Source of the DNA: Candidatus Shapirobacteria bacterium
GTDB taxonomy: Bacteria > Patescibacteriota > Microgenomatia > UBA12405
DNA: 64,000 nucleotides
Assembly (NCBI GenBank): GCA_030698565.1
Contig: JAUYJS010000008.1
Location: 15,098 to 79,097, forward strand
Reading direction: 5' to 3'
A program made the position numbers and the translations under genes. This document shows, piece after piece, positions 12,486-52,972 of the stretch; position 1 is the stretch's first letter; the number at the start of each line of letters is the position of its first letter. The notes under the pieces were generated by a model. The model was not told where the DNA came from, did no database searches, and worked only from the letters and a program-made list of their open reading frames with translations.

Positions 12486-12491
12486 TTCACT

Positions 12492-17280: not shown

Positions 17281-17319
17281 AACTCAACCATTCCCAATAT
17301 TTTCCTTATAATTAAAAAC

Positions 17320-29333: not shown

Positions 29334-30680
29334 ATGGATATAGATCGGATTTGGAAAAACACTCAAGAAGAACTCAAGGTTGTTCTGGCTCCAGCCGTTT
29401 TTCAAACTTTTGTCGCCAAAACTCAGCTAATTAGCCTCCAAAATAATATTGCCACTATTGCTTGCCCCAATTCTTATTTAGTCGATATTAATCACAAACG
29501 CTACTATCAATTATTTAAGGGCGCTTTGGATAATCAAACCAAAAGTGATAATCAACTAAATTTTATTATTCAGGAAATTCCTAAAATCGATTTAGAAAAT
29601 TCTAATTCAGCCCCGCTTTTTACTTATGCTTCTCCCAAAAAAACTTTTTCCGATTCCAATTTACATCCCAAATATACCTTTGAAAATTTAATTGTGGGCA
29701 ATAGTAACAATTTTGCTTATGCTGCCGCCCAGGGTATTGTCAAAAACCCTGGTCTAACTTACAACCCATTTTTCATTTGGGGTGGAGTAGGTGTGGGTAA
29801 AACCCATTTAATGCAGGCTGTTGGCCATGAACTTCTCAAGAGCAACCCTGATTTCAAAGTCAAATATTTTCCCGCCGAAACCTTTGCCAATGAATTAATC
29901 GGTGCTTTAAAATCCAAAAACATGAACCAATTTAAAAATAAGTACCGCAGTTTAGACTGTATTTTAGTTGATGATATTCAATTTATTGCCGGCAAAGAGT
30001 ATATCCAAGAGGAATTTTTTCACACTTTCAACGCCCTTCATATGGCTGGTAAACAAGTTATTTTAACCTCCGATCGCAAACCTAGTGAGATCAAAGATTT
30101 AAAAGACCGCTTGGTTTCTCGTTTTATGGGTGGTTTAACTGTTGATATTCAAATGCCAGATTATGAAATGCGAGTCGCTATTATTAAGCAAAAAATGGAA
30201 GAACGGGGGAGTAGAATCACCAATGAAGCCATAAGTTATTTAGCTGAAAATGTGGTTTCCAATATTCGCGACATCGAAGGTCGGCTTCAAGAATTGACTA
30301 TCCAAGCTATGGCCAAAAATATTCCTGAAATAAATTTAGAATTCATTCAGTTTATTATCAATCCTAACTCCAATACTTTTTTTGAATCTGCCTCTGCAAA
30401 AGTTACTCCTCGTCACTTAATTTCCGTTTGCGCCAAATATTTTAATATTAAAACAGGGGATTTGTGTGGCAAAAGTCGAAAAAAAGAATTGGTTTCCGCC
30501 CGTCATATCACAGCCTACTTACTTTTAACCGAAATTGAGTTACCCCTAGAAGAAGTCGGTCATCTTTTGGGTGGCCGCGATCATACCAGTATTATGCACG
30601 CTCGTGACAAAGTTCAAACAGAGTTCTCCACTAATCCACAAATTCGACAACTTATCAACCAAATTAAAGGCACCTTCTAA
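29334..30680 (+). CDS. dnaA: Chromosomal replication initiator protein DnaA
   Basis: 448 aa with AAA+ Walker A (GGVGVGKTHLMQAVG), sensor motifs, and a C-terminal DNA-binding domain. Confidence 0.95.
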   Translation: MDIDRIWKNTQEELKVVLAPAVFQTFVAKTQLISLQNNIATIACPNSYLVDINHKRYYQLFKGALDNQTKSDNQLNFIIQEIPKIDLENSNSAPLFTYASPKKTFSDSNLHPKYTFENLIVGNSNNFAYAAAQGIVKNPGLTYNPFFIWGGVGVGKTHLMQAVGHELLKSNPDFKVKYFPAETFANELIGALKSKNMNQFKNKYRSLDCILVDDIQFIAGKEYIQEEFFHTFNALHMAGKQVILTSDRKPSEIKDLKDRLVSRFMGGLTVDIQMPDYEMRVAIIKQKMEERGSRITNEAISYLAENVVSNIRDIEGRLQELTIQAMAKNIPEINLEFIQFIINPNSNTFFESASAKVTPRHLISVCAKYFNIKTGDLCGKSRKKELVSARHITAYLLLTEIELPLEEVGHLLGGRDHTSIMHARDKVQTEFSTNPQIRQLINQIKGTF

Positions 30681-30991: not shown

Positions 30992-32116
30992 ATGAAACTT
31001 TCCCTTCTTCAGGAAAATTTAAATTCCGCCTTAAGTAACGTTTCCCGATTCGTTTCTTCCAAGTCTCAATTACCTATATTAAATAACATTCTTATAACTA
31101 CTGATAATGGCCGTCTTAAACTATCGGCTACCAATTTAGAGTTGGGAATAAATTATTGGGTTGGTGCCAAAATCGAGCAAGAAGGTGTCCTGGCTTTACC
31201 CGCCAAAGAAATTACTGAATTTGTTTCCTACTTATCCTCTGGCAAAATTGATTGTGAATTAAACGATAAAAATCTTTTAAGTATATTTTCTACCAAGGCC
31301 GAATCTACTTTTGCCACAATTCCCGCTACAGATTTTCCTACCATTCCTTCAATAAATCCCAGTACTGCCTTTGAAATTGATTTATCTTTATTAGCCACTG
31401 CTGTTTCTCAAGTGGCTTTCGCTGCCGCTTCTGATGATTCCCGCCCAATTTTGACAGCTATTTTATGTAAATTCACCTCTCAAAGTTTTACTTTAGTGGC
31501 CACTGATGGTTTTCGACTATCACTTAAAACCATAAAATTAGTTAATCCAATCAAATTAAATGATGGTCAAGAAGAATTGACATTTTTAATTCCCGCCCGA
31601 AGTTTAATCGAAGTTACTAAACTCGCCAAGAACACTAAAAAAATTACAATTGGTTTAACATCTGATGGTCACCAGGTTGTATTCGTTCTAGACGATCTAG
31701 AGTTAGTTTCTCGATTGATTGAAGGGGATTACCCTGACTTCAAAAGGATCATCCCTGATAGTTTTACTACTCGAATATTTATTAATCGGGAAGAATTTTC
31801 TCAGGCAGTTAAAATTGCTTCTGTTTTTGCTCGGGAGTCAGCTAATGTTGTTCGCTTTAATTTAAAAGCTAATGCATTAGAATTAACTGCCAATGCACCT
31901 CAAATCGGGCAAAATCGGGCCACTGTCGAAGCCAAAATAGAAGGCAATCCTTTTCAGGTAGCTTTTAATTTTAAGTTTATTAATGATTTTCTCAATATTT
32001 GCAAAGGTGAAGAAATTCTCATAGAACTAAATGAAACATTTTCTCCGGTTTCTTTTCAGGATCAATCTGATCCGAGTTTAACCCACATTATCGGTCCAGT
32101 CAGTGTTCAAAACTAA
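30992..32116 (+). CDS. dnaN: DNA polymerase III beta sliding clamp
   Basis: 374 aa, three-domain clamp. N-terminus is MKLSLLQENLNSALSNVSRFV. Confidence 0.9.
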   Translation: MKLSLLQENLNSALSNVSRFVSSKSQLPILNNILITTDNGRLKLSATNLELGINYWVGAKIEQEGVLALPAKEITEFVSYLSSGKIDCELNDKNLLSIFSTKAESTFATIPATDFPTIPSINPSTAFEIDLSLLATAVSQVAFAAASDDSRPILTAILCKFTSQSFTLVATDGFRLSLKTIKLVNPIKLNDGQEELTFLIPARSLIEVTKLAKNTKKITIGLTSDGHQVVFVLDDLELVSRLIEGDYPDFKRIIPDSFTTRIFINREEFSQAVKIASVFARESANVVRFNLKANALELTANAPQIGQNRATVEAKIEGNPFQVAFNFKFINDFLNICKGEEILIELNETFSPVSFQDQSDPSLTHIIGPVSVQN

Positions 32117-32120: not shown

Positions 32121-32510
32121 TTATTCCCATTCAATCAAATGGCTTTGAGGATCCACCTCGTTTTGTATTAGCCACTTTGTAATTTCGCCTTCAATTGTCT
32201 CTTTATTTCCTGATTTAATTTTCACGGTTAAAGTTAGGGGTTTTTGATATTGTTGAATAGTAAATCCTTTTCCTTGGTAGGGTAATATTCGCCACAACGG
32301 GTATTTCTCTTCATTAGTTAGTGCAATTGTGGGAACCAAAGTCGGAGTCGCAATTATTGGTTCATTTGTTGGTGTCGGTAAAATTACTTGATTTTGATTA
32401 ATTTCTTCCACCTTATTACCATAAATTACCTTAATACTCGCCATTACTACCACAATCAAGCTCAATGCCACAATTAATTGGTACTTTTTTAAAAATTGAT
32501 TTAATTTCAT
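32121..32510 (-). CDS. Small exported/membrane-anchored protein, unknown (T4SS-like locus)
   Basis: 129 aa with an N-terminal TM/signal. Confidence 0.35.
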   Translation of the reverse strand: MKLNQFLKKYQLIVALSLIVVVMASIKVIYGNKVEEINQNQVILPTPTNEPIIATPTLVPTIALTNEEKYPLWRILPYQGKGFTIQQYQKPLTLTVKIKSGNKETIEGEITKWLIQNEVDPQSHLIEWE

Positions 32511-32520
32511 TTAACAAATT

Positions 32521-33528
32521 TTATTCTTTTAATAATGGAACCGCTAGAGTTATTGTGGCCGGCCCGGTATCTAATATTCCTTTACCGAGACAAATTAAAT
32601 AAGGTCTCAGAAGAGGATAATTATCAACATCCAAATAAGCTATATAAGTCTGATTAATATTCACTTCCTCAGGTGCCTTGTCTTCAAAATTGGTTAAATC
32701 ATATTGGGCTCCGCCATCAATATTAATAATTTTAAAATTATTAATTGGCAAGGCTTTTATTTCATCAAAATTAAAAGTTGGATAATCATCTTGTTTGGCA
32801 ATTATGGAAGACAAAAGGTCAACATCTAATTTAATTAAAGTGCCGTCCCAAGAAAATCTAGCTACAATGGGAAAGCCTTTATCAGTTAAAATCGGGTAAT
32901 TTTTAATGGCATAATAAGCGTTAATCTTCACAATTTGTGAATTTTCTTTACTACTGCTGACAAATCTGGGATTAATAATTTCCTCATATTCCACATTGTT
33001 TATCGAAATATTTAAACCACTTAAATTCAAGTTTTGATTAACAAGCTTTAAAAAAATATTTTTAATCTGCTCCACTTCTAGTTTTTGGGACACTATCGGG
33101 ATAGGGTTTAGTAAAAGATTTTTATAATAAGAAATCTTATTTTCAGTTTTGTTTATTTCTAAAGTAGATTTATCAGTTTCATTTTCAAAAACAGTTAAAC
33201 TAGAATTATCCAATTTAGAATTATTAAATCCCAAATTTTGGCTCATTTTATTTCCAATTTCTGTAGTATTTGCTTCCCCTAAAACTTTATAAACAGTCAA
33301 GGTGGGATCAATTTTTATATCGTTTATTCCCCAACTAATTTGATTAGGGGATTTCTGGTAGGGTAAAAGATTAGATTGGAATTGTGTTGGTGTTGGGTCA
33401 GTCTTGTTAATAGGTTTTGTAACTGGTTGCTGCTTCAGAAAAAGTAATATTAAAAAAATAACTCCAATCCCAATAATTAAGATTTTTCTAATTGTTTTTA
33501 TTTGGCTCATTTTTATAATTTTCCACAA
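32521..33528 (-). CDS. Exported protein with N-terminal TM anchor, unknown (T4SS-like locus)
   Basis: 335 aa, N-terminal TM. Overlaps the upstream gene by 16 nt, suggesting translational coupling. Confidence 0.35.
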   Translation of the reverse strand: MWKIIKMSQIKTIRKILIIGIGVIFLILLFLKQQPVTKPINKTDPTPTQFQSNLLPYQKSPNQISWGINDIKIDPTLTVYKVLGEANTTEIGNKMSQNLGFNNSKLDNSSLTVFENETDKSTLEINKTENKISYYKNLLLNPIPIVSQKLEVEQIKNIFLKLVNQNLNLSGLNISINNVEYEEIINPRFVSSSKENSQIVKINAYYAIKNYPILTDKGFPIVARFSWDGTLIKLDVDLLSSIIAKQDDYPTFNFDEIKALPINNFKIINIDGGAQYDLTNFEDKAPEEVNINQTYIAYLDVDNYPLLRPYLICLGKGILDTGPATITLAVPLLKE

Positions 33529-36071
33529 TTATCTAAGCAACCTCGTGGTACATCTTTTGGTAAATAAGTATTAATTTGATCCAATTCATTAAGTTGGTAA
33601 TGAAGATGCGGCCCAGTGCTATTACTACCAGTGTTTCCGCTTTCTCCAATTACCTCTCCTGCCTTAAACTCTTTTTGCCCAGTAAAGTTAATACTGTTTA
33701 AATGAAGATATGAAGTATAAAATTCTTTTCCTTTACAAGTACTGTGTAATCTAATAATCTCTCCACCAGTACTACTGCGTTCCCTGATAGCCACTCCATT
33801 ATGGGTAGCTAATACCGGGGTACCAGTACCCACACCAATGTCAATTGATTCCTTAATTGTTCTACAATGAGAACCGGTTGAACCTAAGTTAGGATCACAA
33901 TTTGTATCTGATCCTTGAGTAACATCTTTTCCTGGTGCATTTACTGGCCAACCGTTTGGACAACTTGAGGGTAGCGGGGTATTAGGATCTAAATTTGATG
34001 TTACTTCTTCTCCTCCACCCCCCATACCTGCCGGTGTTACTAAACTAGAAACCTGACTTGAAGTAAAAATCATATAAATAAATAAAAACCCAAACACTCC
34101 TATTATTATTGGGCCAGCGGCTGCTGTCGCTGCGGCTGTAGCCGATGCTAACGCACCAGCTAAGGCCGGACCAAGAAGAGTTGTGGCAATACCTAATCCC
34201 ATTTTACCAAGACTACCTAAAGCATCACCTAAATTACCCTGTAAAAAATTTTTTAGAAAAGATAATCCTCCCATGATTGCTGCGCCAATTCCGCCAGTAG
34301 CTGCCCCAGCTACTGTACTCACTGCGGATTGGACTGCTCCACTAGCCAATGCTTTTCCAGCCATCGAGGCTCCTGCCTTCATACTACTTCCAAAAAAATT
34401 ACCCATGGCCATTTTTAAGCCTTGCCCTAGGCCATTTTTTGATATCAGTCCAAAAGTATTTTGAGCAAAGACTCTAAAACCACCTTCAACTCCATTATTT
34501 AAAAAATTACCTAATTTTGGGAAAATTTTAGTAACAAAACCACCAGTAAACTTATCGGCTTTTTGAATAAAATTTGTCCAACCCTGAGCTTTATTAAAAT
34601 AACCCATTAAGTTATTATCTGTTTTAATTTCGCCAAAAAAACTTTGCAGTCTATCGACATCTGCCAAACCATCTATATGTAGATTTACATCGACAGCACG
34701 TTGATTCAGTAATTCAAATCTTTTAATTACAGTTTCAACCTTTTCTTGCCCGGTAACTAATCCAACTGTCATTTTTGTATATTCAAAATCTCTCTCCATC
34801 TTGGCACTATTCTCGCCTCCAACACCTGCCTTGACCTTAATCTCCTTACTAAAACTATCAATCGGGTTATTAACAAAGGGTTTAATAAAGTCTTTTAAAT
34901 CATTAGCCACAACCCTTTGTTCTTCCGTTAAATTAGGATTTGACTCAATAATCTTGTTATCAAAAACCTCCTCAAACATTTCACCTCTATAAGTATTAAT
35001 TAATCCTGGATTTCCCTTTATCAAACTACTAATCTCTTCCTCTACTCCTCTTGCTTCAAATTTTACTGTCGACAGTTCTGTTGCCGTCAGCTCCGGCAAG
35101 ATTCTAATTACTTCATTTGAAAAAGTATTTGTGTAAATTTCTCCCGTTTCTAAATCACGCCCAGAAAAGGCATTAATTACTGTTTGTTCAATTTTTGGTT
35201 TTAAAAATCTCACTCGGTTTTTAGTTATTTGAGAAACGCTTGGATTGTCTTCTAAGTGAGATGCCAAATTTTCAACCAGAGATTCACTTTTATTTTCAAT
35301 TTTAATCCTAGTATCTATTCCATAAACTGCTTCTGCCAGCTCTGCATTGACCTTTTTTCTAACCACTGGCTTAGTAATTTCTTTAGTAATTTCAGCTATT
35401 TCTTTTTTTGGTTCAATTATTAGTTTTTGTTCTAAAATCCTAGGACCGAACTGCTTAAAAATTTTTTCTACAACAATACTGGCCTGTTCAGCAGTAACGC
35501 CCAAACTTTTAATTTTAGTCTCAACTCTCTTTGTATTTTGGTCGACTAATCTTTCAATTCCGCTTTTATCCTTACTTTGAATTATTTCTTTTTGTTTTGT
35601 TTCAGTAACTTTCTCTGTATTTAGATCCCTTTGTTCTTTGGCAATTTTTTGTTGACCCTCAATAAAATTATCTATATTATTTTTAATCGTTTCTGGCTGG
35701 ACCAAACCTTCATTCTTTTTAATTTCTTCCTCAGCTTGTTTACTTTGTAGTTCTTTTAAAGTTTCTTTATCTATAACAACAGATTCCTGTTTTACAGTAG
35801 TTTCTTCTAATAAATCCTTAATTTTTTCATCTTTTAAATCTTCAGGAATTTCATTTAAAGCATTTAAAATTCCATCAACATCATCAATCCTTAATTTACC
35901 CCATCTATCTAAGTGTGAAAGTAATTTTTGGCTAGAAATAATTAGCCCATTATCGGGATTTAATTGAATTCCAATATCTTTTACAATTTTAAAAGCGTCA
36001 ATTAGATCCGAGACAACAGTATATTTTTTTGTGTTGTTCTCAATTTCCAGTCTAATAGCAGAAGAATCCAT
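33513..36071 (-). CDS. T4SS-associated cell-wall hydrolase candidate: coiled-coil N-terminus, Gly/Ala-rich membrane segment, C-terminal M23 (LytM) peptidase
   Basis: 852 aa. The C-terminus has the M23 motifs GEVIGESGNTGSNSTGPHLHYQ. The middle region (GASMAGKALASGAVQS...AAATAAAGPIIIGVFGFLFIYMIF) is Gly/Ala-rich and hydrophobic. Confidence 0.6.
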   Translation of the reverse strand: MDSSAIRLEIENNTKKYTVVSDLIDAFKIVKDIGIQLNPDNGLIISSQKLLSHLDRWGKLRIDDVDGILNALNEIPEDLKDEKIKDLLEETTVKQESVVIDKETLKELQSKQAEEEIKKNEGLVQPETIKNNIDNFIEGQQKIAKEQRDLNTEKVTETKQKEIIQSKDKSGIERLVDQNTKRVETKIKSLGVTAEQASIVVEKIFKQFGPRILEQKLIIEPKKEIAEITKEITKPVVRKKVNAELAEAVYGIDTRIKIENKSESLVENLASHLEDNPSVSQITKNRVRFLKPKIEQTVINAFSGRDLETGEIYTNTFSNEVIRILPELTATELSTVKFEARGVEEEISSLIKGNPGLINTYRGEMFEEVFDNKIIESNPNLTEEQRVVANDLKDFIKPFVNNPIDSFSKEIKVKAGVGGENSAKMERDFEYTKMTVGLVTGQEKVETVIKRFELLNQRAVDVNLHIDGLADVDRLQSFFGEIKTDNNLMGYFNKAQGWTNFIQKADKFTGGFVTKIFPKLGNFLNNGVEGGFRVFAQNTFGLISKNGLGQGLKMAMGNFFGSSMKAGASMAGKALASGAVQSAVSTVAGAATGGIGAAIMGGLSFLKNFLQGNLGDALGSLGKMGLGIATTLLGPALAGALASATAAATAAAGPIIIGVFGFLFIYMIFTSSQVSSLVTPAGMGGGGEEVTSNLDPNTPLPSSCPNGWPVNAPGKDVTQGSDTNCDPNLGSTGSHCRTIKESIDIGVGTGTPVLATHNGVAIRERSSTGGEIIRLHSTCKGKEFYTSYLHLNSINFTGQKEFKAGEVIGESGNTGSNSTGPHLHYQLNELDQINTYLPKDVPRGCLDNCGKL

Positions 36072-36105
36072 TAAATAAAATTATATCAATTGCCCCATCT
36101 TTCTC

Positions 36106-38478
36106 CTAGACAATATCTTTACCCAAAAGCTTGTCGTAATCTGGTTTTTTATCGTTATTTTGTTTGTTGTCAATAAATTCCGGCACATTTTTTTTAGCAA
36201 ATTGCGGTGGCTGGGGAATTTTTGGCTCAGTTTGATTTATAAAAACTGGCCCTTTATTATTATTTTGAGGAACCACAGTTTCTGGTTTAGGTGGTTCAAA
36301 TTTGGGCAAGGGCGGCAAAGGAGGTAGTTTGTCCGAGTCACTGAAAGATTTAAATAAATCTTTATACTTAGGCGAATCTATTTCATTTGCTTTTTTTTCG
36401 ATTTCTCCATCTTTTACTTGTTTTTCGTGCTCATCAAGTTTTTTTTGTTCCAAAACCTCAAGTTCTGAAATCCTTTGGTTTAAAGCATTTTCTATTTTTT
36501 CCGCTTCATTTATGTTTATTTGTTGGGGTTTTTCTACGACCGTTTCTAAAAACATTTTTCTATTTTCATTTACTGGTACTGGTATAGGTTGAGCCGGCAA
36601 AGACGGTTTAACCTCTTCTGTCTTTTTAGGTTCCAAATTTATTGGTGGGCTAATTGGCTTAACTGGTTCAGCAGCCGTTTTTTGTTGTTTTAATTTTTCT
36701 TCCGGGTTTGAAGTAATTAATCTATGTTCATCTTCAGAGGCAATTACTTTAATAGCCACATGGTTTTGTCCGGCAAAAAATATGCCTTCACCTTTACCCG
36801 CACTCAAAAGTAGTTGTTTTTCTCCTTCAGATAAATAAAATACTTCCGCTAATTGGTCAATAGCCGCACTGTGCTGTTTTAAAAGAATTTGAATCGAACT
36901 GTTGGTCACTATTTCTTTACCATACGGTGTTTGCAAAAAATCATCCACGTCTTGGGTAATTGTCGTTACTCCCAGATAATATTTTCTACCTCTTTTAACC
37001 ACACCTCTTAAAAACGCGGCCGAATCCGGATACTGCATCAAATACCAAGCCTCATCGACTATCAAAATTCTTTTTTTAAGATTATTTTTAATTACCGTCC
37101 ACACATAATCCAAGATGATATACATAGCTACTGGTCGTAGGGAATCTTCCAAGTTTCTTATTCCAAAAACGACAAAATTACTAGTTAAATTAACTGTTGT
37201 TTTTTGGTTAAAAATACCCGCAAAAGCGCCTTTAATATATCTTTCCAGTCGGGCAGCAATATTGGCAGCTTTCGGATCTTCCATTCCAATTAGTGATTTA
37301 TATAAATCTTCTACTAATGGAGCTTCCTTGTTTTGTGTTTCCGGATCTGGGGTTATCCCTTTCATTTTGTAGGCATCCAATAGAGCCCGATCCAAGATCG
37401 ATTCTTCCATAGGATCCATTTGCCCCAACATTACCTTAAACAATTGATGTAAAGACAGCATTTTAGAATTAAGGGCGTTTTCCCCCTCTTCCATAGTTAA
37501 AGATAAATCAAAAGGATTAATTTTTGAATTTTCATTATAACCAAAGGCAACATATTGGCCTCCGACTGATTCACACAAGTCACGGTATTCATTTTCTGGA
37601 TCAATAACAATAATATCTGTTCCAAACATAGCCGATCTCAATGCTTCTAATTTTATTAAATATGATTTACCCGCACCAGCAGTCGCAAAAACCACCGAAT
37701 TATAATTAGGCATAGAGAACCTGTCAAAAATTACCAGAGATCCGTTATGTTGATTTATTCCATACATTATTCCCTTATCATCCGAGAGGTCTGAAGACAC
37801 AAATGGAAAAGTCGTCGCCAAGGAAGTTGTATCCATATTTCGAGTTATTTGAAGTTTATCGTCGCCAATTGGTAGGGTAGTGATAAAACCATCTTCCATT
37901 TGCAAAGTAGCCCTTTTACTAATAATTAAAAGTGCTCCCAAGGCTGCTTCTAAATTTTTATTAATTCTGTTAAGCTCCGCTACAGAGTCAGCTGTAATTG
38001 TTATATATAAACCAAATTGAAAAAAGCGTTCTTCTCCTTTAACCAAATCAGCTTGTAAATTCAAAGCATCTTCTAATTTAGCTTGAGTTGCTGGATTAAC
38101 CAATCTTCCTCTCTGAATATCCGAACCAATTTCCGCTTCCATTTCAGTAATTTTTCGCCTCAAATCATCCAAAATTTCCTTACCATCAGTTGGATAAATA
38201 AACATGGAAATATTAAGTGAGGCATCGAAATTAATTAAAGATGACAACCAATTTATGCCGACAAATCGGGGATATGCCGCCACAAACAAGGTTCGATAAT
38301 ATTTATTGTCAATTCTTAAATAATCAAAATCCACTTCAATTGCCGAAGGTGCAATCACATCTTTAGTGGTTACTAATCCTTCCGCAAACGGCTTAATATT
38401 ATTATTTGTTTCAATTGTCGACACTACCGTTTCCGGTTTTATATCTGTTTTTTTTATTAATTTATTTAAAAAACTCAT
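36106..38478 (-). CDS. VirB4/TrsE/TraC-family T4SS ATPase with unusual ~200-aa Pro/Lys-rich C-terminal tail
   Basis: 790 aa. N-terminal RTLFVAAYPRFVGINWL region, Walker A FATAGAGKSYLIK, and Walker B ILIVDEAWYLM. The C-terminal tail (PISPPINLEPKK...PPLPPLPKFEPPKPE) is low-complexity. Confidence 0.8.
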   Translation of the reverse strand: MSFLNKLIKKTDIKPETVVSTIETNNNIKPFAEGLVTTKDVIAPSAIEVDFDYLRIDNKYYRTLFVAAYPRFVGINWLSSLINFDASLNISMFIYPTDGKEILDDLRRKITEMEAEIGSDIQRGRLVNPATQAKLEDALNLQADLVKGEERFFQFGLYITITADSVAELNRINKNLEAALGALLIISKRATLQMEDGFITTLPIGDDKLQITRNMDTTSLATTFPFVSSDLSDDKGIMYGINQHNGSLVIFDRFSMPNYNSVVFATAGAGKSYLIKLEALRSAMFGTDIIVIDPENEYRDLCESVGGQYVAFGYNENSKINPFDLSLTMEEGENALNSKMLSLHQLFKVMLGQMDPMEESILDRALLDAYKMKGITPDPETQNKEAPLVEDLYKSLIGMEDPKAANIAARLERYIKGAFAGIFNQKTTVNLTSNFVVFGIRNLEDSLRPVAMYIILDYVWTVIKNNLKKRILIVDEAWYLMQYPDSAAFLRGVVKRGRKYYLGVTTITQDVDDFLQTPYGKEIVTNSSIQILLKQHSAAIDQLAEVFYLSEGEKQLLLSAGKGEGIFFAGQNHVAIKVIASEDEHRLITSNPEEKLKQQKTAAEPVKPISPPINLEPKKTEEVKPSLPAQPIPVPVNENRKMFLETVVEKPQQININEAEKIENALNQRISELEVLEQKKLDEHEKQVKDGEIEKKANEIDSPKYKDLFKSFSDSDKLPPLPPLPKFEPPKPETVVPQNNNKGPVFINQTEPKIPQPPQFAKKNVPEFIDNKQNNDKKPDYDKLLGKDIV

Positions 38479-38479
38479 T

Positions 38480-39184
38480 TTATTTTTTAGTACTAACCAT
38501 TGGGGCGGTGTAATTTAATGTCTGAATTTTTTGATTTATCGAATTTTCTTCATTATATATTTTATAAAACAATTCTATTAATTCTTTAGTTGCTAGTTGC
38601 CTTATTTCCAAACCCAACCTAGCAAATAGTCTCATCAAATGATCTCGTTTAGGTTCCAAATTAGCCTTTGCTTTTTCTAAAATATAATTTTTATCATAAG
38701 GTAATACTTGAGACTTTTTTTTCATCGGCAGTAAACTAGCCAAAATTTGTTTATTAGCCGATTTTATACCCAACTCTAAAACTGAAAATCTAACTAAAAC
38801 ATAAAATGATTTAGATAGTACTTCATTTTTTTTAACCGTCTCTTCTATAAATTTTCTATAAAGCTGAATTCTCTGTTTCAATAGCGGGTTAATTTGTTTT
38901 TCTTCAGCCGTCTTCAAATTATTTAAATAAGCGCTTACATCTTTTGTATTTGATCTGATTAGAATTTGAATTGGAAAATTAAGTGAATTTAAAATTCCAC
39001 CATATGCAAAAACCAAAGACGACTGTTCTTTTTCCGACAAAAGGTCGAAATTTACCGATGATAATTGCATTACCATAGCGCACGACCCATCTTTTAAAAT
39101 CACCACATTATCCACCACATCTTCAATCTGAAGATGCTCTTGAGTAGTTCCTTTAATGGCGATTTTTAATGGGTCACTTGGCAT
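38480..39184 (-). CDS. Hypothetical soluble protein encoded immediately upstream of VirB4 (1-nt gap)
   Basis: 234 aa, no TM segments or recognised motifs. Tight spacing implies co-translation with the ATPase. Confidence 0.35.
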   Translation of the reverse strand: MPSDPLKIAIKGTTQEHLQIEDVVDNVVILKDGSCAMVMQLSSVNFDLLSEKEQSSLVFAYGGILNSLNFPIQILIRSNTKDVSAYLNNLKTAEEKQINPLLKQRIQLYRKFIEETVKKNEVLSKSFYVLVRFSVLELGIKSANKQILASLLPMKKKSQVLPYDKNYILEKAKANLEPKRDHLMRLFARLGLEIRQLATKELIELFYKIYNEENSINQKIQTLNYTAPMVSTKK

Positions 39185-39206
39185 ACCTTTTATTATTAAT
39201 CATAAC

Positions 39207-40142
39207 TTAATTAGAAGCAATAATTCTTATTGGTTTAACAATCTGACCAGACAAATCAATATTAACCCGATCAAAATTACTACCTTCTTTTTCGGCAATC
39301 ATTAAGTAACGACCGTTGGCTAAAGGCGTTGAAGTTTTAAATTGACCCAAAGAGTTAGTTTTTAAAACTCGAGAAGAATTACCATGTTCATCTTGAATTT
39401 CAACAATTACCCCCTCCACTATTCCGCCTTGGATATCCGTCGCCATCCCCACCACTACATTTGGCACATCGGGAATATCTGGCATGGGTATAGTACCAAA
39501 CACAGCACTACCAGTTGCCTCCAATTTTTCCGTTTTTAAGTCTAAATTTGTTTTTTGATTTTTCCAATCGTTGGCAGTGTTTTTAATTTGTGCCTCGGTT
39601 TTTATTACTTCAACTGGTTTACTCGGCTCATCAATTACCGTTGATTTAATTATCTTTTGATCAGGCTTAAAATCCTCCTCTTTTTCCATTTCTGTTTCTT
39701 TAGGTTCCCCTAAAGTCAATGATTTCAGATAATCACTTATCTTTCTTTTTTTGTCTTCATCTTTTAATTGCCAACCTTTATTATTGTTTTCTTCCGCACT
39801 TTCTTCATCCCTATTTTTAGGTTCACTAAAATCAGTTTTAAGCCAGTTTACGTCAACACTTTTTTTGTAAATAAAAATAGTTGGAGAGTAGATTGCCTTA
39901 ATAAAAGAAGATATCCATTTTTCTAATGGTCTATCTTGGAGGGGAACAAAAGCCAATATTAATCCGCCCCCAGCAAAAATTGCCATTAATGGCCATTTAA
40001 CTAGAATCATTATGTTAGTCGCGTTAAATAGCATGGCAATTATTACTCCAGCCGCAGCTTTTAAAAACTGCTTTAAGGTCATTTCACCGACGAGTTTGAA
40101 TTCATACGATGAAATTTGCTGTGGTATTGGGTGTTGTTCCAT
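39207..40142 (-). CDS. Membrane protein: VirB3-like N-terminal 2-TM segment + C-terminal carboxypeptidase-regulatory-like beta-sandwich domain
   Basis: 311 aa. The N-terminal two TMs (LKAAAGVIIAMLF...WPLMAIFAGGGLILAFV) match the small membrane protein that classically precedes VirB4. The C-terminus (VVVGMATDIQGGIVEGVIVEIQDEHGNSS...GQFKT) is CarbopepD_reg-like. Confidence 0.4.
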   Translation of the reverse strand: MEQHPIPQQISSYEFKLVGEMTLKQFLKAAAGVIIAMLFNATNIMILVKWPLMAIFAGGGLILAFVPLQDRPLEKWISSFIKAIYSPTIFIYKKSVDVNWLKTDFSEPKNRDEESAEENNNKGWQLKDEDKKRKISDYLKSLTLGEPKETEMEKEEDFKPDQKIIKSTVIDEPSKPVEVIKTEAQIKNTANDWKNQKTNLDLKTEKLEATGSAVFGTIPMPDIPDVPNVVVGMATDIQGGIVEGVIVEIQDEHGNSSRVLKTNSLGQFKTSTPLANGRYLMIAEKEGSNFDRVNIDLSGQIVKPIRIIASN

Positions 40143-46981: not shown

Positions 46982-47350
46982 ATGAATTGCCAAGTTAAAT
47001 GTCGTCAAAAATGCCAATTATTAGGCTCTTTAGAACAAAAAATAATTGAAGTTTTGTGGAATGCGAAAAACCCGCTTAAGCCAGCCGAAGTCCTAATGAA
47101 AATTGAAGGTGAATATTCATATACCACCATCATGACTGTATTAAAAAGGATGTCTTTAAAAGGAATTTTAAAAAGAGAGTTGAATGGTAAGGTCTATTTT
47201 TACAGTCCTTTAAAAATCAAAGAAACTTTTGTTGCCGATTGTTTAAATGACTTATTCGCCCGCCTTTTTGATTGTTATGGGCAAGCTGTAGTTGATTCTT
47301 TTTATTCTTCTGCTAAAGAAGCTAATATTAAAACCTCACTTGCTTCTTGA
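46982..47350 (+). CDS. BlaI/MecI/CopY-family winged-helix transcriptional repressor
   Basis: 122 aa with LGSLEQKIIEVLW...YTTIMTVLKRMSLKGIL. Has an extra Cys-rich N-terminus, MNCQVKCRQKCQ. Confidence 0.7.
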   Translation: MNCQVKCRQKCQLLGSLEQKIIEVLWNAKNPLKPAEVLMKIEGEYSYTTIMTVLKRMSLKGILKRELNGKVYFYSPLKIKETFVADCLNDLFARLFDCYGQAVVDSFYSSAKEANIKTSLAS

Positions 47351-47381
47351 CATTTTTTTTAACTCTACTACACTTTGTAGT

Positions 47382-48893
47382 ATGTCAACAAAAAATAAAG
47401 TTCAAACATTCTTTGTCCAAGGTCTTCACTGTGCCTCTTGTCAATTAATAATCGAAAAAAGATTAATTAAAGAAGATGGTATTGAGATGGTTGATGTTTC
47501 CCTAAACAAAGGATCTCTAACGATTGAACACAATCCTGATCTCAAAATAACACCCGATGTTTTAAATAGAATCTTTAATGAAGACGGTTACAAATTTGCT
47601 CGTGAACATTTCAAAAAGACCCAACAAATAGCTAAAAATAGTCATTGTGCTATTCCAGACGAAGCTCCATCTAATCCTTTAAATTCATATTTAATTGCAG
47701 GTATCTTTATTTTGGGTTATCTATTTTTATCCAAGAGTGGTTTTTCTTCTCTAATTTCAGTTAATTCCCAATCATCTTTACCAGTATTTTTTCTTTTTGG
47801 ATTATTAGCCGGCCTTTCTAGTTGTGCTGCCTTAGTCGGTGGAATAATTTTATCTTTAAGTAAACAATGGTTATCAGTATATAGCTCCGACGAATCAACC
47901 CTGAGAAAATCCGAGCCCCATATTCTTTTTAATCTAGGTCGAGTTTTAGGTTATGTCGTTTTAGGGGGAGTTTTAGGTTACATCGGTAATTTCTTTAGAC
48001 TATCGCCAATTACCACCGCATCGATAGTTATCTTAGTTTCTTTATTTATGGCCGCTTTAGGTTTACAAATGGTTGGAGTAAAAGCTTTGCGTAATTTTCA
48101 AATTCGATTACCCACATCTATAACCCGAAAATTAGCTGATGAAACTAATTTCCAAGGGCGTTTGGGACCATTTTTAATGGGGGCCTTAACTTTCTTTTTA
48201 CCCTGTGGTTTTACTGCTACCGCTCAGGCTTTAGCTCTTTCTTCAGGTAATCCTACTCAAGGAGCTTTGATTATGGGTTTATTTGCACTAGGTACGGTTC
48301 CTGGCCTTTTAGCTATTGGTTTAAGTAGTGTCAAATTTTATAGTGATCCCAAAATTTCTCGTCAGTTTTCTTTAATTGCCGGAATTTTAGTTCTGTTCTT
48401 TTCCATTTTCAATATCAATTCTCAGATGTCGGTTTTAGGTGTTTCTAGTCTAAGTGATTTAATTCCGAGTAACATAGCAACAAAAACCCAAACTGTGGGG
48501 GAGTTGCCGCCAATGGTGAACGGAAAACAAGTTATTAAAATTAAAGCGTCTTCCACTGGTTACATTCCAAATCGTATTACGATGAGAGCCAATACTCCAA
48601 CACGCTGGGAAGTTACCGATACTGGTACTAGTGGTTGTACCAACGCTATTATTTCCCGAAGTTTATTTGAAGGTCAAATTGACTTAACCCCCGGTACTAT
48701 ATCTTTTAAGGAATTTACATCACCTAAGCCAGGGAAATACAAGTTCTCTTGTTGGATGGGGATGATATCTGGAACAGTAGAAGTAGTGGATGAAACTGGC
48801 TCAACTGGAGCTACTGCAAATGCCGTACCAGTTGAATCTGGAGCCAAAGGTTGTGGTTGTGGTGGAGGCGGTAGCGCCTGTGGCGGCCGCTAA
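47382..48893 (+). CDS. Heavy-metal-associated (HMA) domain + DsbD_2/CcdA-like membrane domain + C-terminal cupredoxin-like domain protein
   Basis: Start reassigned to ATG 47382 (MSTKNKVQTF). GLHCASCQ HMA motif, about 6 TM with an LPCG motif, and a C-terminal cupredoxin-like domain (KPGKYKFSCWMGMISGTVEVV) with a Gly/Cys tail. Confidence 0.55.
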   Translation: MSTKNKVQTFFVQGLHCASCQLIIEKRLIKEDGIEMVDVSLNKGSLTIEHNPDLKITPDVLNRIFNEDGYKFAREHFKKTQQIAKNSHCAIPDEAPSNPLNSYLIAGIFILGYLFLSKSGFSSLISVNSQSSLPVFFLFGLLAGLSSCAALVGGIILSLSKQWLSVYSSDESTLRKSEPHILFNLGRVLGYVVLGGVLGYIGNFFRLSPITTASIVILVSLFMAALGLQMVGVKALRNFQIRLPTSITRKLADETNFQGRLGPFLMGALTFFLPCGFTATAQALALSSGNPTQGALIMGLFALGTVPGLLAIGLSSVKFYSDPKISRQFSLIAGILVLFFSIFNINSQMSVLGVSSLSDLIPSNIATKTQTVGELPPMVNGKQVIKIKASSTGYIPNRITMRANTPTRWEVTDTGTSGCTNAIISRSLFEGQIDLTPGTISFKEFTSPKPGKYKFSCWMGMISGTVEVVDETGSTGATANAVPVESGAKGCGCGGGGSACGGR

Positions 48894-48943
48894 ATTTATT
48901 GAATTTATTAATTCTTAATTATTAATTTTTAATTAAACTAATT

Positions 48944-49156
48944 ATGCAAACAGTAACTTTTAGTATTCCCGACATGCACTGTCCTTCTTGTCCTAAATTA
49001 ATCAAATTGACTTTACTAGACATCGATGGGGTTAATGAAGTTGAAGCTTCGTTAGACACAAAAAAAGTAGTTGTTAATTTTGATTCTCAAAAAACTTCAG
49101 TTGTTTCACTTATTAATTCAATCAAAGAAACTGGATATACCGCCAGTCTTAAATAA
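48944..49156 (+). CDS. copZ: Copper chaperone CopZ (HMA domain)
   Basis: 70 aa with the MHCPSC metal-binding motif. Near-duplicate of the first HMA domain of the downstream ATPase. Confidence 0.8.
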
Positions 49157-49160
49157 ATCT

Positions 49161-52100
49161 ATGACTCAAGATATAAAATCAAAGCAGGTGATTTTATCTG
49201 TTCCCGATATGCACTGTCCTTCTTGTCCTAAATTAATTACTCTCGGCCTCAAGGATCAATCCGGAGTTATTTCTGTTAATGCTTCTTTGGAAAATAAACA
49301 AGTCGTTGTTAATTTTGATCCGGAAAAAATTAAAATCAACGATTTATTAGCCAACATAAAAGAATCTGGATATACAGCCATATCCAAAGAGAACGGAGAT
49401 ATGCCTGTTATCGAAAATGCACCACCTGAATTACCTACAAAAACAATTACTCCAACTACTGTTTCTGGTACCCAGGTTGCCCTTTTAAATTTAACTGGTA
49501 TGCACTGTTCTTCATGTGCTGGTTTAATTGAAAGGTCTCTTAAAAAAATACCCGGCGTGACTGAAGTCAATGTTAATTTTGCCTCGGAAAAAGCCCGGAT
49601 TGTTTACAATTCCAACACAACAAAGGTTGAAGATTTGATTAAAGGTGTCGAATCAGCTGGTTACCACGCCTCACAGCCTGGTGAAAAAGAAGAAAACCAG
49701 AAAGAAAAACGAGCCCACGAAATTAGTTATTGGTCCAAAAAATTTCTCCTAGGTCTGGTTTTGAGTTTACCCATGATTCTTTTCATGGTTTACGATTTCA
49801 CTAATGCCATTCCATTTAAGACCAGCATTATGCCTTACGCCGGAATTCTCTCACTGCTTTTATCCACCCCGGTTCTTTTTTATGTCGGATCAAACTTTTT
49901 CGCTGGTTTTTGGTCAGCCCTAAAAATGCGAACTTTTTCTATGGATTCGTTAATTGCTATCGGTACCGGTACTGCTTTCACCTACAGTCTTTACGAATTC
50001 ATTAAATATGCTTCTGAAACAGGTTCCATTATTGGTTTAAATGGCACAAAGGTTCCAGATCTTTATTTTGAAGTAGCGGCATTTTTAATCACCTTTGTTT
50101 CTTTAGGTAAATATCTTGAAGCCAAAGCCAAAGGCAAAACTTCCGAAGCGATTGAAAAACTCACAGGGTTAGCTCCTAAAACCGCCCGAGTTATGCGTCA
50201 AGGTCAACCAATCGATATCCCAGTAGAACAGGTCGTTGTGGGGGATATCATTGTTGTTCGTCCTGGTGAAAGAATTCCAGTTGATGGTGAGGTAGTTTCT
50301 GGTTATTCAGCTGTCGATGAATCGATCCTTACGGGTGAATCTTTACCTGTTGAAAAACAAATTGGGTCTAAAGTTTATACAGCTTCTATCAATAAAACCG
50401 GTTCCTTCGAATTTAAAACTACAAAAATTGGTGCCGACACAGCCTTAAGTCAAATCGTAAAATTAATTGAAGATGCCCAAGGGTCTAAGGCGCCAATCCA
50501 AGCTGTTGCCGACAAAATTTCTTCAATTTTCGTTCCAGTGGTTATTGGAATTGCCATTCTTACCTTCATAGTTTGGTATTTTTTACTTAGTGCCACTTTA
50601 ACCTTTTCTCTTTTAGCTTTTGTTGCTGTTATCGTTATTGCCTGTCCTTGCGCCTTAGGCTTAGCTACTCCGACTTCAATCATGGTCGGAACTGGCAAAG
50701 GGGCCGAATATGGTGTTTTGATAAAAGGTGGTGAACCTTTAGAAATGGCTGAAAAAATCAAGGCCATCGTCTTTGACAAAACTGGTACCCTAACTAAGGG
50801 TAAACCAGAAGTAACCGACTTTATAAATTACCTGCCAGGTGATCAAACTATTCTTTCAGTTTTGTATTCAATTGAACAAAAAAGCGAGCATCCCTTGGCC
50901 GAAGCCATTGTTCGTTATGGTCAAAATACTGGTGCTGTTAATTATGCCATTGAAGACTTTCAAGCCATCCCAGGTCATGGTGTCAAAGCCACCGTTAATG
51001 GGCAAGTCTATTTTGTAGGTAATCGTAAACTTTTGGAAATCAACCAAATTCCTCTAACTTCTGGTTATGACATGGAAAGATTAGAAAACGATGGTAAAAC
51101 CGCCATGGTCATAGCTAATCAAGAAAAAGTTTTAGGTTTAATTGCTGTAGCCGATCAAGTTAAAGAATCATCTGCTTCAGTTGTCTCCAAGCTAACAAAA
51201 ATGGGTATAACTGTTTATATGATTACTGGCGACAACCGTCGTACAGCTGATGCAATCGCTAAACAGGTCGGTATTACTAATGTATTAGCTGAAGTTTTAC
51301 CTCAAAATAAAGCTGAGGAAGTTAAAAAGCTTCAAGATTCTGGTATTAAAGTTGCCATGGTTGGTGATGGTATTAATGACGCTCCAGCTCTAACTCAAGC
51401 TGATTTAGGTATAGCCATGGCCTCTGGTGCCGATATTGCCATGGAATCAGGAAATATTGTAATAATGACCAACGACTTAAACGGCGTTTTAACTGCCATA
51501 AGTCTATCGCGGGAAACTGTTGGTAAAATTCGTCAAAACATGTTTTTTGCCTTATTTTATAACGTCTTAGGTATCCCGATTGCAGCCCGCGCCTTAGCTT
51601 TTATGGGTCTTATTCTTAAGCCTGAGCTAGCTGGCTTGGCTATGGCATTGTCTTCAGTTTCAGTTGTGACCAATTCTTTAACCCTAAAATTATTTAAGCC
51701 AGGTAAATTCAATTGGATTTCTCGTTTAGCCCCTTTTGTTATGGTGGGTCTATTTTTAGGTGTATTTATCGAATTTGCTCGATTTTCTTCCCAAATGGGA
51801 GGATTAGAGTCTGGGGCCAAATCTGGGCCGGCTGCCTATATTCAAAAAGCTCCAGTTATTAAAACAGTCATAAATAGGCTTTTGGTCGACAATGCTTCCA
51901 AGATTGGTTTTGCGGAAAACCTCCCTAAGTTATTTATAGGTGTCAACAAATTACCTGAATCAATAATGCTAGCCGAGGGCTCCTCCGATCTTTCAGAACA
52001 GGGAAGTGTCATTTTAGGTGCCAAAGAAGCTGCCATGATGACAGAAGAAGGTTTAATTAGTGGTATCAATTCTGAGATCCCTGACTTTTTCGGGCTACCC

Positions 52101-52544
52101 AAATTAAAAGTTGTCGGCATCCTGGCTCCTACTGGCACGATTCTAGACGAATATCATATCTTTAGTAAAGATAGCTTAGAAGGTTTAACCAAAGCTAATA
52201 ATGATTTTCTAATTACAGAAACTCCCCTAGAAGACCTTAAACTTTTTTATCTTTATGACAGTGCCAATATCCCTAAGGCTTTAGATTCACTTATCAACCC
52301 AGCCAAAACTTCATATACGATTGATGGAACTAAATATCTTTCGACCGTAATTGGTTATGATGAGGCCAAAATGATGATTAAAGAAAAACTTTTCCAAAAA
52401 AAGTTTGACACCATCAAAGATATTTTTGGCAACAATATTATAATTACCGGTCTTCCTAAAAAGACTCTTACTAGTCTTGATATGATGCACTTTGTACCCA
52501 GGGAATTTAAAGATAATTTTATTTCCACCTCTGAAAATAAATAA
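49161..52544 (+). CDS. copA: Copper-translocating P1B-type ATPase CopA with two N-terminal HMA domains and a ~300-aa C-terminal extension
   Basis: Start reassigned to ATG 49161 (MTQDIKSK), directly after the copZ stop. Motifs: MHCPSC, GMHCSSC, TGES, CPC ([12 protein letters not shown]), [17 protein letters not shown]. About 300 aa follow the last TM, with no counterpart in canonical CopA. Confidence 0.85.
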
Positions 52545-52556
52545 TCTATATAAAGT

Positions 52557-52970
52557 ATGAAAATTCCACCAAATTTAATACTTATTACTATTCTTATTGT
52601 TGGTGGATTTTTATTATTAAAATCTCCCACTGTTGTGACTACAACCAATCCAATATTAGAGGTAACTCCGACAACAGTTCCGGTTACAGACAAAGTACAA
52701 ATTTTAAAAGCCACATATGGACCACCAACAGGTTTTTACCCCATAGAATTTACTGTTAAAGCTGGTCAGCCAGTTCGACTTGAAGTTTTAGCCACTGAAA
52801 ACGGTCGTGGATGTATGGGAAGTATTATGGTTCCGGATTTTCTTCCTGACGATATTCAGTTTTTTACAAAAGGGGAAACAAATGTTTTTGAATTTACACC
52901 CACTATCCCAGGGGAATACCAAATAACCTGTGGCATGGGCATACCCCACGCTAGTTTAGTCGTTAAATGA
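52557..52970 (+). CDS. Membrane-anchored cupredoxin-like protein
   Basis: 137 aa, N-terminal TM. Its C-terminal domain is homologous to the C-terminus of 47382-48893 (EYQITCGMGIPHASLVV vs KYKFSCWMGMISGTVEVV). Confidence 0.5.
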   Translation: MKIPPNLILITILIVGGFLLLKSPTVVTTTNPILEVTPTTVPVTDKVQILKATYGPPTGFYPIEFTVKAGQPVRLEVLATENGRGCMGSIMVPDFLPDDIQFFTKGETNVFEFTPTIPGEYQITCGMGIPHASLVVK

Positions 52971-52972
52971 CC

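Follow-up and report, generated by a model that had tools for sequence, protein, structure and literature searches.

In the type IV secretion systems (T4SSs) encoded by the trs genes of pGO1/pSK41 and the tra genes of pIP501 the gene order is TrsC/TraC (VirB3-like), TrsD/TraD, TrsE/TraE (VirB4) and TrsG/TraG (wall hydrolase). T4SSs of Patescibacteria are already in the literature as well (PMC10633639, PMC12102498, PMC12857230), and our subject is an operon of that kind, locus B, at 32121–40142 on the minus strand of a 64 000-nt stretch of DNA ('the window', in whose coordinates positions are given unless a related locus is named) from a Candidatus Shapirobacteria bacterium (GenBank assembly GCA_030698565.1, contig JAUYJS010000008.1, positions 15 098–79 097 of the forward strand). 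We found it to be ordinary for its group: a known chromosomal, origin-adjacent Patescibacteria T4SS operon, here in Shapirobacteria.

In Southlakia epibionticum ML1 (Wang 2023, PMC10633639) the T4SS genes SEML1_0004-0019 lie beside dnaA-dnaN and run the opposite way. All of them are essential for epibiotic growth, as determined by transposon sequencing (Tn-seq), and neither a coupling protein nor a relaxase could be recognised (PMC10633639). Their products include a 300-aa PrgI-family protein, an unannotated protein of ∼290 aa, a 612-aa VirB4 and a protein of 1113 aa whose C-terminal part has a DD-peptidase fold, along with lysozyme and cysteine-protease hydrolases, small exported proteins and an array of VirB2-like pilins (PMC10633639).

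The survey of Quinonero-Coronel 2025 (PMC12102498) describes a monophyletic VirB4 clade related to MPF-FATA, a class that has a TrsD subclass. In this clade TrsD is the commonest neighbour, VirB3 is of the PrgI type, VirB2 arrays occur especially in Microgenomatia and VirB1-like proteins bear M23 or LysM; the neighbourhood is that of dnaA/dnaN/rnpA/rpmH, and relaxases are nearly absent. Looking for the traits by which the survey characterizes the Patescibacteria clade, we found in the window TrsD beside virB4, PrgI/VirB3, a VirB2 array and a wall hydrolase, in a chromosomal position near dnaA/dnaN and with no relaxase domain in the 64 kb. We consider it highly probable that locus B encodes the half of a Patescibacteria T4SS that energises the machine and breaches the wall, and that this T4SS is a vertically inherited, chromosomal, origin-proximal derivative of the monoderm (MPF-FATA) conjugation machinery, no longer tied to a relaxase.

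The six open reading frames (ORFs) of the original prediction, a co-directional minus-strand block beside the origin, are all present at the coordinates first read. In the direction of transcription they encode a 311-aa PrgI/VirB3-like fusion (39207–40142), a 234-aa TrsD-like protein (38480–39184), a 790-aa VirB4 (36106–38478), an 852-aa M23 hydrolase (33513–36071), a 335-aa PepSY/YycH/YpeB-like protein (32521–33528) and a small membrane-anchored protein of 129 aa (32121–32510). With intergenic distances of only −16 (an overlap) to +34 nt the six genes look like one operon. The convergent dnaN gene (30992–32116) ends 4 nt from it; dnaN follows dnaA (29334–30680), on whose opposite side are rnpA, yidD and yidC. 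The GC content of the operon (0.32–0.36) equals that of its flanks. Promoter and terminator scans of the locus gave counts no higher than the shuffled expectation and were uninformative, and Rfam and tRNA scans had no match inside 32121–40142. For comparison we used 83 loci: two from Woesebacteria, one from Shapirobacteria and those of 80 species-representative Microgenomatia genomes.

The block had been read as a T4SS core (a VirB3-like protein with small transmembrane (TM) segments, VirB4 and a wall hydrolase), a reading made to depend on the alignment of the 790-aa protein with VirB4 past the P-loop. About 550 residues were aligned and the family cut-off was passed: the score against NCBIfam NF045971 (CD1110-family VirB4) is 391.6 bits at a cut-off of 325, over model positions 178–734 of 752. 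The best PDB match is 4AG5, the C-terminal domain of Thermoanaerobacter VirB4 (E-value 4e-53 over aa 228–589). The score against TIGR00929, 114 bits, is below the cut-off of 643; the protein therefore belongs to the monoderm VirB4 subfamily, not to the VirB4/CagE subfamily. The ATPase core spans aa 29–595, and the protein has a TraG P-loop match (E-value 7e-31). Walker A (ATAGAGKS, aa 265–272, 37663–37686, minus strand) and Walker B (ILIVDE, aa 471–476, 37051–37068, minus strand; located as a regular-expression match) were both read from the translation and are kept in 120 homologues; they are intact, as claimed at first. A homologue search returned at least 8000 proteins, all at E-values of 1e-10 or lower; among the matches listed the best were 61–83% identical, plus one at 97%. 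The named top homologues are all from Shapirobacteria, Woesebacteria or Patescibacteria, which fits the Patescibacteria VirB4 clade.

Pfam DUF87 (HerA central domain) also matches the 790-aa protein (E-value 1e-6), as it would if the protein were a HerA/FtsK-type translocase of an unrelated system with coincidental neighbours. This match, however, is limited to the P-loop region, whereas the VirB4 models extend over the whole aligned length, and PrgI-like and TrsD-like genes are adjacent to virB4 in ∼90% of the loci. The NF045971 score and the 4AG5 match refute a HerA/FtsK identity, and this explanation has next to no chance of being right.

The alignment with the VirB4 model begins at position 178, i.e. 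the N-terminal domain of VirB4, membrane-proximal and VirB3-binding, is absent from the 790-aa polypeptide. The 234-aa protein matches VirB4_plasma (Mycoplasma-ICE VirB4, ICE being an integrative and conjugative element) at positions 106–233 (E-value 1.6e-6) and CD1110 VirB4 at positions 2–130 (E-value 2.3e-4). Because these are N-terminal positions that the 790-aa protein lacks, the 234-aa protein is a split-off VirB4 N-terminal module. It also matches NCBIfam TrsD/TraD (E-value 3.3e-7), with 30.3 bits against NF041427, for which the curated cut-off is 200, and its orthologues carry Pfam PF26593 TraC-like. The protein is thus a remote homologue of TrsD, outside the staphylococcal/enterococcal family as defined by NCBI. 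A separately encoded N-terminal module is typical of the clade, giving a two-gene VirB4 as in TrsD-TrsE systems. With these matches and its presence in 82 of the 83 loci the protein is not the orphan it was first taken for. The TrsD family profile gave no meaningful match to PDB sequences (best E-value 0.24), and a single-sequence search was also blank.

The TrsD stop codon and the virB4 start codon (38476–38500, minus strand) are 1 base apart in an A-rich run, ACT AAA AAA TAA A ATG, where deletion of one A would join both genes. A frameshift or sequencing error at this A6 run was considered and rejected: the TrsD-like gene is an ORF separate from virB4 in 73 of the 73 assessable loci, so the split is ancestral. 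The junctions in relatives are usually 1–5-nt gaps or ATGA overlaps. Given the 1-nt distance here and the overlaps there, translation of TrsD and VirB4 is probably coupled.

In the 311-aa protein Pfam PrgI matches aa 5–87 (E-value 2.7e-5; 25.1 bits, PF12666 gathering score 27) and CarboxypepD_reg matches aa 230–288 (E-value 7.7e-4; 20.2 bits, PF13620 gathering score 32.3). Among its 1336 homologues many have precomputed PF12666 and/or PF13620 matches; PF12666 is carried by most orthologues, one of which has the NCBI name 'PrgI family protein'. The PrgI-like module (39882–40130, minus strand) has two TM helices (aa ∼27–47 and 52–68, with the loop KWP) and an amphipathic helix (aa 73–85). An AlphaFold2 (AF2) model, built on 59 homologues in which the first 20 residues are nearly invariant, places helices at aa 12–42 and 45–65, as a hairpin, and at 73–85 (per-residue confidence, pLDDT, 75–86). 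A disordered, variable Lys/Glu-rich linker follows (aa ∼100–210, 39513–39845, minus strand; pLDDT <50), with no tblastn match in any related locus. The chain ends in a transthyretin/CnaB/carboxypeptidase-regulatory-like beta-sandwich (aa 228–310, 39213–39461, minus strand; pLDDT ∼90) that is 45–80% identical across nearly all loci, unlike the unconserved linker.

Foldseek matched the modelled sandwich, with probability 1.00, to CnaB2 (8bdw, E-value 2e-5), to the transthyretin-like domains of carboxypeptidases D (3mn8, E-value 2e-4), N and M, and to HIU hydrolase (3qva, 27–30% identity). In the predicted structure the prealbumin-like fold of the C-terminal domain is confirmed, and the fusion of a carboxypeptidase-regulatory-like domain to a VirB3-like module, noted in the original prediction, is supported despite the sub-threshold Pfam scores. 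We predict the sandwich to be cytoplasmic because there are two TM helices with a 3-residue loop, positive charges on both flanks and a VirB3 topology.

The gene order common to loci L001–L003 and most of the 80 species-level genomes is 5′-3′ exonuclease, PrgI-like, TrsD, VirB4, hydrolase, small TM proteins and dnaN-dnaA-rpmH-rnpA-yidC. Of the 83 loci, 75 have the PrgI-like hairpin, 78 have the beta-sandwich, 82 have TrsD and 55 have dnaN; the 311-aa-like gene lies directly upstream of the TrsD-like gene. The VirB4 match and the recurrence of the PrgI-like fusion are far beyond chance. Three features had been singled out as unusual (the VirB4 tail, the beta-sandwich fusion and the 852-aa hydrolase); all three are real, but none is peculiar to this genome, being conserved across Shapirobacteria and Woesebacteria.

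A T4SS gene block may also be part of an ICE or a remnant of a conjugative plasmid, with a machine that transfers DNA by conjugation. The VirB4 is indeed in the family used by Firmicutes ICEs (CD1110), and the order VirB3-like, TrsD, VirB4, hydrolase is collinear with the pGO1/pIP501 transfer operons. However, none of the large ORFs of the window has a Pfam domain of a coupling protein (T4CP, VirD4), relaxase or VirB11, in agreement with the first reading, and no integrase was found in the 64 kb either. Dozens of species have the operon in this same slot, with the 5′-3′ exonuclease gene on one side and dnaN on the other, and the GC content of the operon matches its surroundings; this shared order and equal GC argue for a vertical, chromosomal nature. 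In Patescibacteria, according to PMC12102498, relaxases are rare and lie near virB4 in only 15 genomes. We thus find the conjugative explanation very unlikely.

A likely partner of the VirB4 operon, ∼20 kb away, is locus A, where six tandem, divergent genes for VirB2-like T4SS pilins (10029–12444, plus strand) match PF18895 T4SS_pilin (E-values 1.7e-6 to 7e-10) and, weakly, a Mycoplasma ICE pilin-like family. They are followed, in the region 10029–14966 (plus strand), by genes for a 280-aa secreted-looking protein and for a 523-aa polytopic protein (13395–14966) with ∼7–8 TM segments, a VirB6-like candidate by architecture. The 523-aa protein has no Pfam/NCBIfam match even at E-values of 1–10, TrbL/VirB6 and PrgH included; permissive Pfam/NCBIfam searches with the 280-aa protein gave nothing credible. 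Homologues of the 523-aa protein are encoded 4–6 kb upstream of virB4 in L073 and L078. Locus A and the VirB4 operon are tied together by L078, in which they are contiguous, the pilins and the 523-aa homologue being immediately upstream of PrgI-TrsD-VirB4. The 523-aa protein may be the missing VirB6-like component, one rarely detected in Microgenomatia by the PMC12102498 survey. Between the two loci, at 15001–19005, an ORF of 759 aa on the minus strand (no family match) shares ∼80 nt with the beginning of a gene for a 601-aa DUF6909 protein on the plus strand (E-value 5e-162); neither the 759-aa ORF (15001–17280) nor the 280-aa ORF shows homology to the similarly placed genes of L078.

We now turn to the hydrolase, a protein of four parts (all on the minus strand). 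A Lys/Glu-rich, lineage-specific N-terminal extension (aa 1–290, 35202–36071; 29% Lys+Glu at aa 100–300) is without counterpart in L001 and L002 and has no tblastn match in any related locus. It is followed by a conserved middle domain (aa ∼291–582, 34326–35201), predicted to be cytoplasmic, which includes the motif DK.TGG and aligns with the 612–650-aa proteins of L001 and L002; it has no Pfam or PHROG match, and permissive Pfam/NCBIfam searches with the middle and N-terminal parts gave nothing credible. The third part is a Gly/Ala-rich hydrophobic region (aa 583–673, 34053–34325), and the fourth a Peptidase_M23 domain (PF01551; aa 740–829, 33585–33854; E-value 1.8e-16, 60.5 bits at a threshold of 28.7). 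The first zinc motif of this domain is H-x8-D, not H-x3-D, and is followed by Y.H and HLH; the His, the Asp and the HxH are conserved in 19 of the 19 M23-type orthologues.

The Gly/Ala-rich hydrophobic stretch reported at first is borne out by composition (18% Gly and 14% Ala at aa 500–700) and by hydropathy, which has two weaker maxima before a strong TM segment at about aa 644–674, or ∼649–673 within the region (1.36, 1.43 and 1.94). The membrane segment FLFIY.IFT.S.VSSLV.P is conserved. Since the hydropathy and the flanking charge (+2 before, −3 after) fit, we predict an N-in/C-out orientation. Taken together, the protein appears to be a modular, membrane-anchored wall hydrolase, a component with VirB1 function.

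The resemblance of the 852-aa protein to tape-measure proteins, also suggested at first, raises the question whether it is a phage tape-measure or injection protein and the block prophage-related. Many tape-measure proteins have Gly/Ala-rich hydrophobic segments, and two PHROG tape-measure families match at E-values of 1.6e-11 and 1.2e-10. All the PHROG matches, though, are confined to aa 732–835, i.e. to the M23 domain, which is found in some tape-measure proteins as well. Outside aa 732–835, and for the other five genes, no phage family was matched save for a weak terminase match of TrsD (E-value 1.5e-4), and no phage structural genes are present. A phage origin is highly improbable, and the tape-measure resemblance did not hold up.

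In all 56 loci whose sequence reaches far enough past virB4 and contains one large ORF there, that ORF (416–1229 aa) comes after virB4. Compared with the window, the VirB4 core has a median identity of 79% and dnaN one of 66%, whereas the medians are only 25% each for the hydrolase middle domain and the 335-aa protein, and 36% for the 129-aa protein. According to Pfam, the C-terminal domains of 57 hydrolase orthologues are M23 (19), NlpC/P60 (8), Peptidase_C39-like (8), VanY (3) and CHAP (2), the rest being unrecognised; by BLAST clustering the NlpC/P60 group numbers 15. L053 and L060 have VirB4 cores that are 96.6% identical and hydrolases that are 35% identical with different catalytic domains; their nucleotide similarity (∼80% in the flanks) is lost exactly between the virB4 stop codon and the last small ORF before dnaN. 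The hydrolase region is therefore hypervariable, and its catalytic domains have been swapped. That extracellular components evolve fast and exchange domains suggests selection by an interaction partner, possibly the wall of a host.

The hydrolases of L053 (12533–16000) and L060 (12769–16197) are ∼1150 aa long and have an extra conserved extracellular domain with the motif WLHESGASNY...EDFGIH; it sits after the membrane segment and before the swappable catalytic domain and is absent from the 852-aa protein of the window.

NCBI has an identical copy of the 335-aa protein as Q8P53_02995; gene callers begin it at Met7 (329 aa). It is a membrane-anchored extracellular PepSY/YycH/YpeB-like protein, its fold similarity and topology fitting PepSY/YycH/YycI/YpeB-like regulators. 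It has no Pfam PepSY match, and permissive Pfam/NCBIfam searches gave nothing credible; a word-based homologue search returned only the protein itself, and its homologues were found by exhaustive phmmer search. The gene occurs only beside hydrolases of the M23 type (19 of 19, compared with 0 of 38 for the others), and owing to this exclusive co-occurrence we regard its product as a partner of M23. An identity as VirB8/TcpC/TraM was rejected for lack of an NTF2-like fold. YpeB acts on SleB, and PepSY propeptides act on M4 peptidases. With YpeB-SleB, YycH/YycI-WalK and the PepSY propeptides of M4/M36 peptidases the 335-aa protein has no similarity at the sequence level, and in contrast to them it is paired with an M23 domain that belongs to a T4SS protein. 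The 129-aa protein has an N-terminal TM anchor, according to hydropathy, and a small C-terminal domain. It matches no family, permissive Pfam/NCBIfam searches included, and its homologues lie between the hydrolase gene and dnaN in 34 loci.

The VirB4 tail (aa ∼596–790, 36109–36693, minus strand; ∼195 aa with 14% P, 15% K and 12% E by composition) is, as first described, of low complexity and rich in Pro, Lys and Glu, the segment PPLPPLPKFEPPKPE quoted then being located at aa 719–733. Its conservation, named as something to check, proved to be clade-specific: in 120 homologues the tail is 149–371 aa long, variable in sequence and for the most part unalignable. In related loci with a VirB4 core identity of at least 73% the tails have 107–427 aa, the value of 107 coming from a split gene in L050, whereas in 11 distant Microgenomatia loci (core identity 64–69%) only 7–60 aa are left, i.e. 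the tail is absent. Two short elements are conserved. The motif KIPQPPQFAKKNVPEF (aa 753–768, 36175–36222, minus strand) has the consensus IPQPPQL.KK..P.F with at least 70% column conservation in 121 aligned sequences. The extreme C-terminal peptide PDYDKLLGKDIV (36109–36144, minus strand), with the consensus K-M/L-D/N-Y-D/E-x-L-F-G-N/D-G-I-V-COOH, closes the tail with its Y-D/E-x-L-F-G element in most of the 120 homologues. The tail is thus more than low-complexity filler.

A shared secretion signal was considered for Y-D/E-x-L-F-G and rejected: in the window and 81 loci the ending is confined to VirB4 tails and occurs on no other protein, with the exception of the split VirB4 tail of L050. 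In that locus (9971–12444) the tail is a 105-aa ORF of its own, still ending in ...DYDDLFGNGIV; the separation is either natural or due to a frameshift or an error of assembly. In the F plasmid the C-terminal tail of TraD binds TraM. TraD and the present VirB4 are both T4SS ATPases with a disordered C-terminal extension ending in a short conserved acidic/aromatic peptide; TraD, unlike VirB4, is a coupling protein, and the likeness may be no closer than an analogy.

In established T4SS biology VirB3 anchors VirB4, VirB4 serves in pilin dislocation and pilus assembly, and VirB1-type enzymes open the wall. By this scheme, VirB4 hexamers would dock at the membrane via the VirB3-like hairpin and TrsD, forming a motor. 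The motor would power extraction of the VirB2-like pilins and their polymerisation through a VirB6-like platform, for which the 523-aa protein is the candidate by its architecture; the resulting pilus or conduit would be directed towards a host bacterium. The hydrolase, placed N-in/C-out, may cleave peptidoglycan cross-links of the cell's own wall, and possibly of the host's, for passage of the machine. Its PepSY/YycH-like partner could restrain or position the M23 domain, by analogy with YpeB-SleB and the PepSY propeptides of M4 peptidases. The VirB4 tail, predicted to be a disordered cytoplasmic tether, would offer its terminal peptide to a partner. By analogy with Southlakia, the system would serve not conjugation but growth as an epibiont on a host; the original prediction favoured uptake or attachment over conjugation, which agrees with published opinion.

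An importer of DNA or of RNA/nucleotides, derived from a T4SS in the manner of archaeal Ced or Helicobacter ComB and feeding a nucleotide-auxotrophic cell, would likewise do with no relaxase or T4CP nearby. VirB4 does match CedB (E-value 2e-12) and CedD weakly, and a 2026 preprint proposes acquisition of host RNA by a member of Minisyncoccota, with possible T4SS pili. The CedB score, however, is 46.6 bits, far under the cut-off of 700. In Southlakia, moreover, competence reportedly runs via ComEC (with reference to Wang 2023), and ComEC, unlike the essential T4SS, can be dispensed with; hence the essentiality of the Southlakia T4SS is not due to ComEC-dependent DNA uptake. We regard the importer as quite unlikely.

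Several points weigh against locus B as the VirB4-driven, wall-breaching half of an epibiotic T4SS. The PrgI and CarboxypepD_reg scores of the 311-aa protein are under the Pfam gathering thresholds. The cytoplasmic placement of its sandwich follows from the positive-inside rule and the VirB3 precedent, and the closest structural relatives (CnaB, pilin domains) are mostly extracellular. The first zinc-binding motif of the M23 domain, H-x8-D, is non-canonical. VirB6- and VirB8-like components have no homology match, the 523-aa protein being a candidate by architecture. To our knowledge there is no cultured representative of Microgenomatia. A coupling protein or relaxase could sit elsewhere in the genome, and, according to PMC12102498, VirD4-like genes lie far from virB4 in many Patescibacteria.

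One could speculate further that the VirB4 arm (140–430 aa, disordered, with the near-invariant peptide Y-D/E-x-L-F-G-x-G-I-V at its end) is a coupling or recruitment device that replaces the coupling protein by docking a substrate, an adaptor or a T4SS subunit, and that the hydrolase and its partner form a recombining host-range cassette in which the enzyme would attack the host wall instead of the cell's own and the partner would provide self-protection or immunity. Taken jointly, this is fairly unlikely to be correct. If it were true, the T4SS of Shapirobacteria/Woesebacteria would have two adaptations beyond the published description.

Elsewhere in the window, 956–5515 (minus strand) contains the genes for 23S and 5S rRNA and, upstream of them, those for tRNA-Ala and tRNA-Ile; the rRNA operon appears to be split, because no 16S gene follows tRNA-Ile in the window and a VTT-domain gene (4661–5302) lies between the tRNAs. 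The cluster at 5645–9925 (minus strand), between the rRNA/tRNA genes and the pilin array, comprises a pair of RimK-like ATP-grasp genes, a gene in which ATPgrasp_ST is fused to Zn_protease and one for a 7TM_transglut membrane protein, and looks like a peptide-ligation or modification module. At 47292–55364 (plus strand) two heavy-metal P-type ATPases and a DsbD/HMA/cupredoxin protein are encoded with a GC content of 0.38–0.40, compared with ∼0.33 elsewhere; the stretch may be an island for metal resistance gained by horizontal transfer. Among the related loci, the GTDB-representative records of L005, L010, L012 and many others are titled 'uncultured Gammaproteobacteria bacterium', and that of L051 'Candidatus Methanoperedens sp.'; such titles on typical Microgenomatia loci probably reflect mislabelled or contaminated bins.

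In the one lineage tested the T4SS of Patescibacteria is essential for epibiotic growth. From the locus described here several handles follow. The conserved terminal peptide of VirB4 should have a binding partner and, given a co-culture of Microgenomatia, could be used in pull-downs and in complex structure prediction; the M23/PepSY-like pair of enzyme and partner and the VirB3-tethered beta-sandwich, whose cellular side can be determined, are testable. The hypervariable hydrolase cassette may track the cell-wall chemistry of the host and, again with a co-culture, could guide host-range comparisons. We see useful leads, not surprises, in the tail motif, the pairing of M23 with a PepSY-like protein and the hydrolase cassette, and a specialist would expect such a locus beside dnaN in a Microgenomatia genome.

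The pGO1/pSK41 trs and pIP501 tra systems share with the window the gene order and a monoderm architecture without outer-membrane core. Unlike the window, they are plasmid-borne, possess a relaxase and a T4CP and lack VirB2 pilins; their hydrolase combines SLT and CHAP with an N-terminal anchor, their VirB3 has no beta-sandwich and their VirB4 no tail. TrsD scores 30 bits here, far under the TrsD/TraD family cut-off of 200.

The likeness to Southlakia consists in the dnaN-side location, in the order PrgI, TrsD-like, VirB4 and big protein with C-terminal peptidase, and in the pilin array. The differences concern VirB4 (612 aa and tailless in Southlakia, 790 aa in the window), the C-terminal extension of PrgI (predicted helical there, a beta-sandwich here) and the end of the big protein (a Hedgehog/DD-peptidase fold there, M23 here). 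Prealbumin-like and BT0923-like domains are found in Southlakia on one small exported protein. There, pilins, VirB6-like and NTF2-like proteins are encoded in the same cluster, whereas the pilin locus of the window is 20 kb away.

In the available passages of PMC12102498 there is no mention of a VirB4 tail, a terminal motif or a PrgI beta-sandwich, and hydrolase hypervariability and a PepSY/YycH-like partner were not found there. The VirB4 terminal peptide, hydrolase swapping and the M23-linked 335-aa gene are unmentioned both in PMC10633639 and in PMC12102498, as far as the accessible text goes. The docking-like motif of the VirB4 tail and the swappable hydrolase with its matched partner protein thus seem to be undescribed. 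PMC12102498 places only 22.6% of Microgenomatia VirB3 hits near virB4, while here the PrgI-like gene abuts TrsD-virB4 in 75 of the 83 loci. With the clade as described there the window shares the MPF-FATA-related VirB4, TrsD, PrgI, the VirB2 array, M23, the dnaA/dnaN neighbourhood and the absence of a relaxase; it adds no new kind of system to those known, and shows that the Microgenomatia version is complete and conserved.

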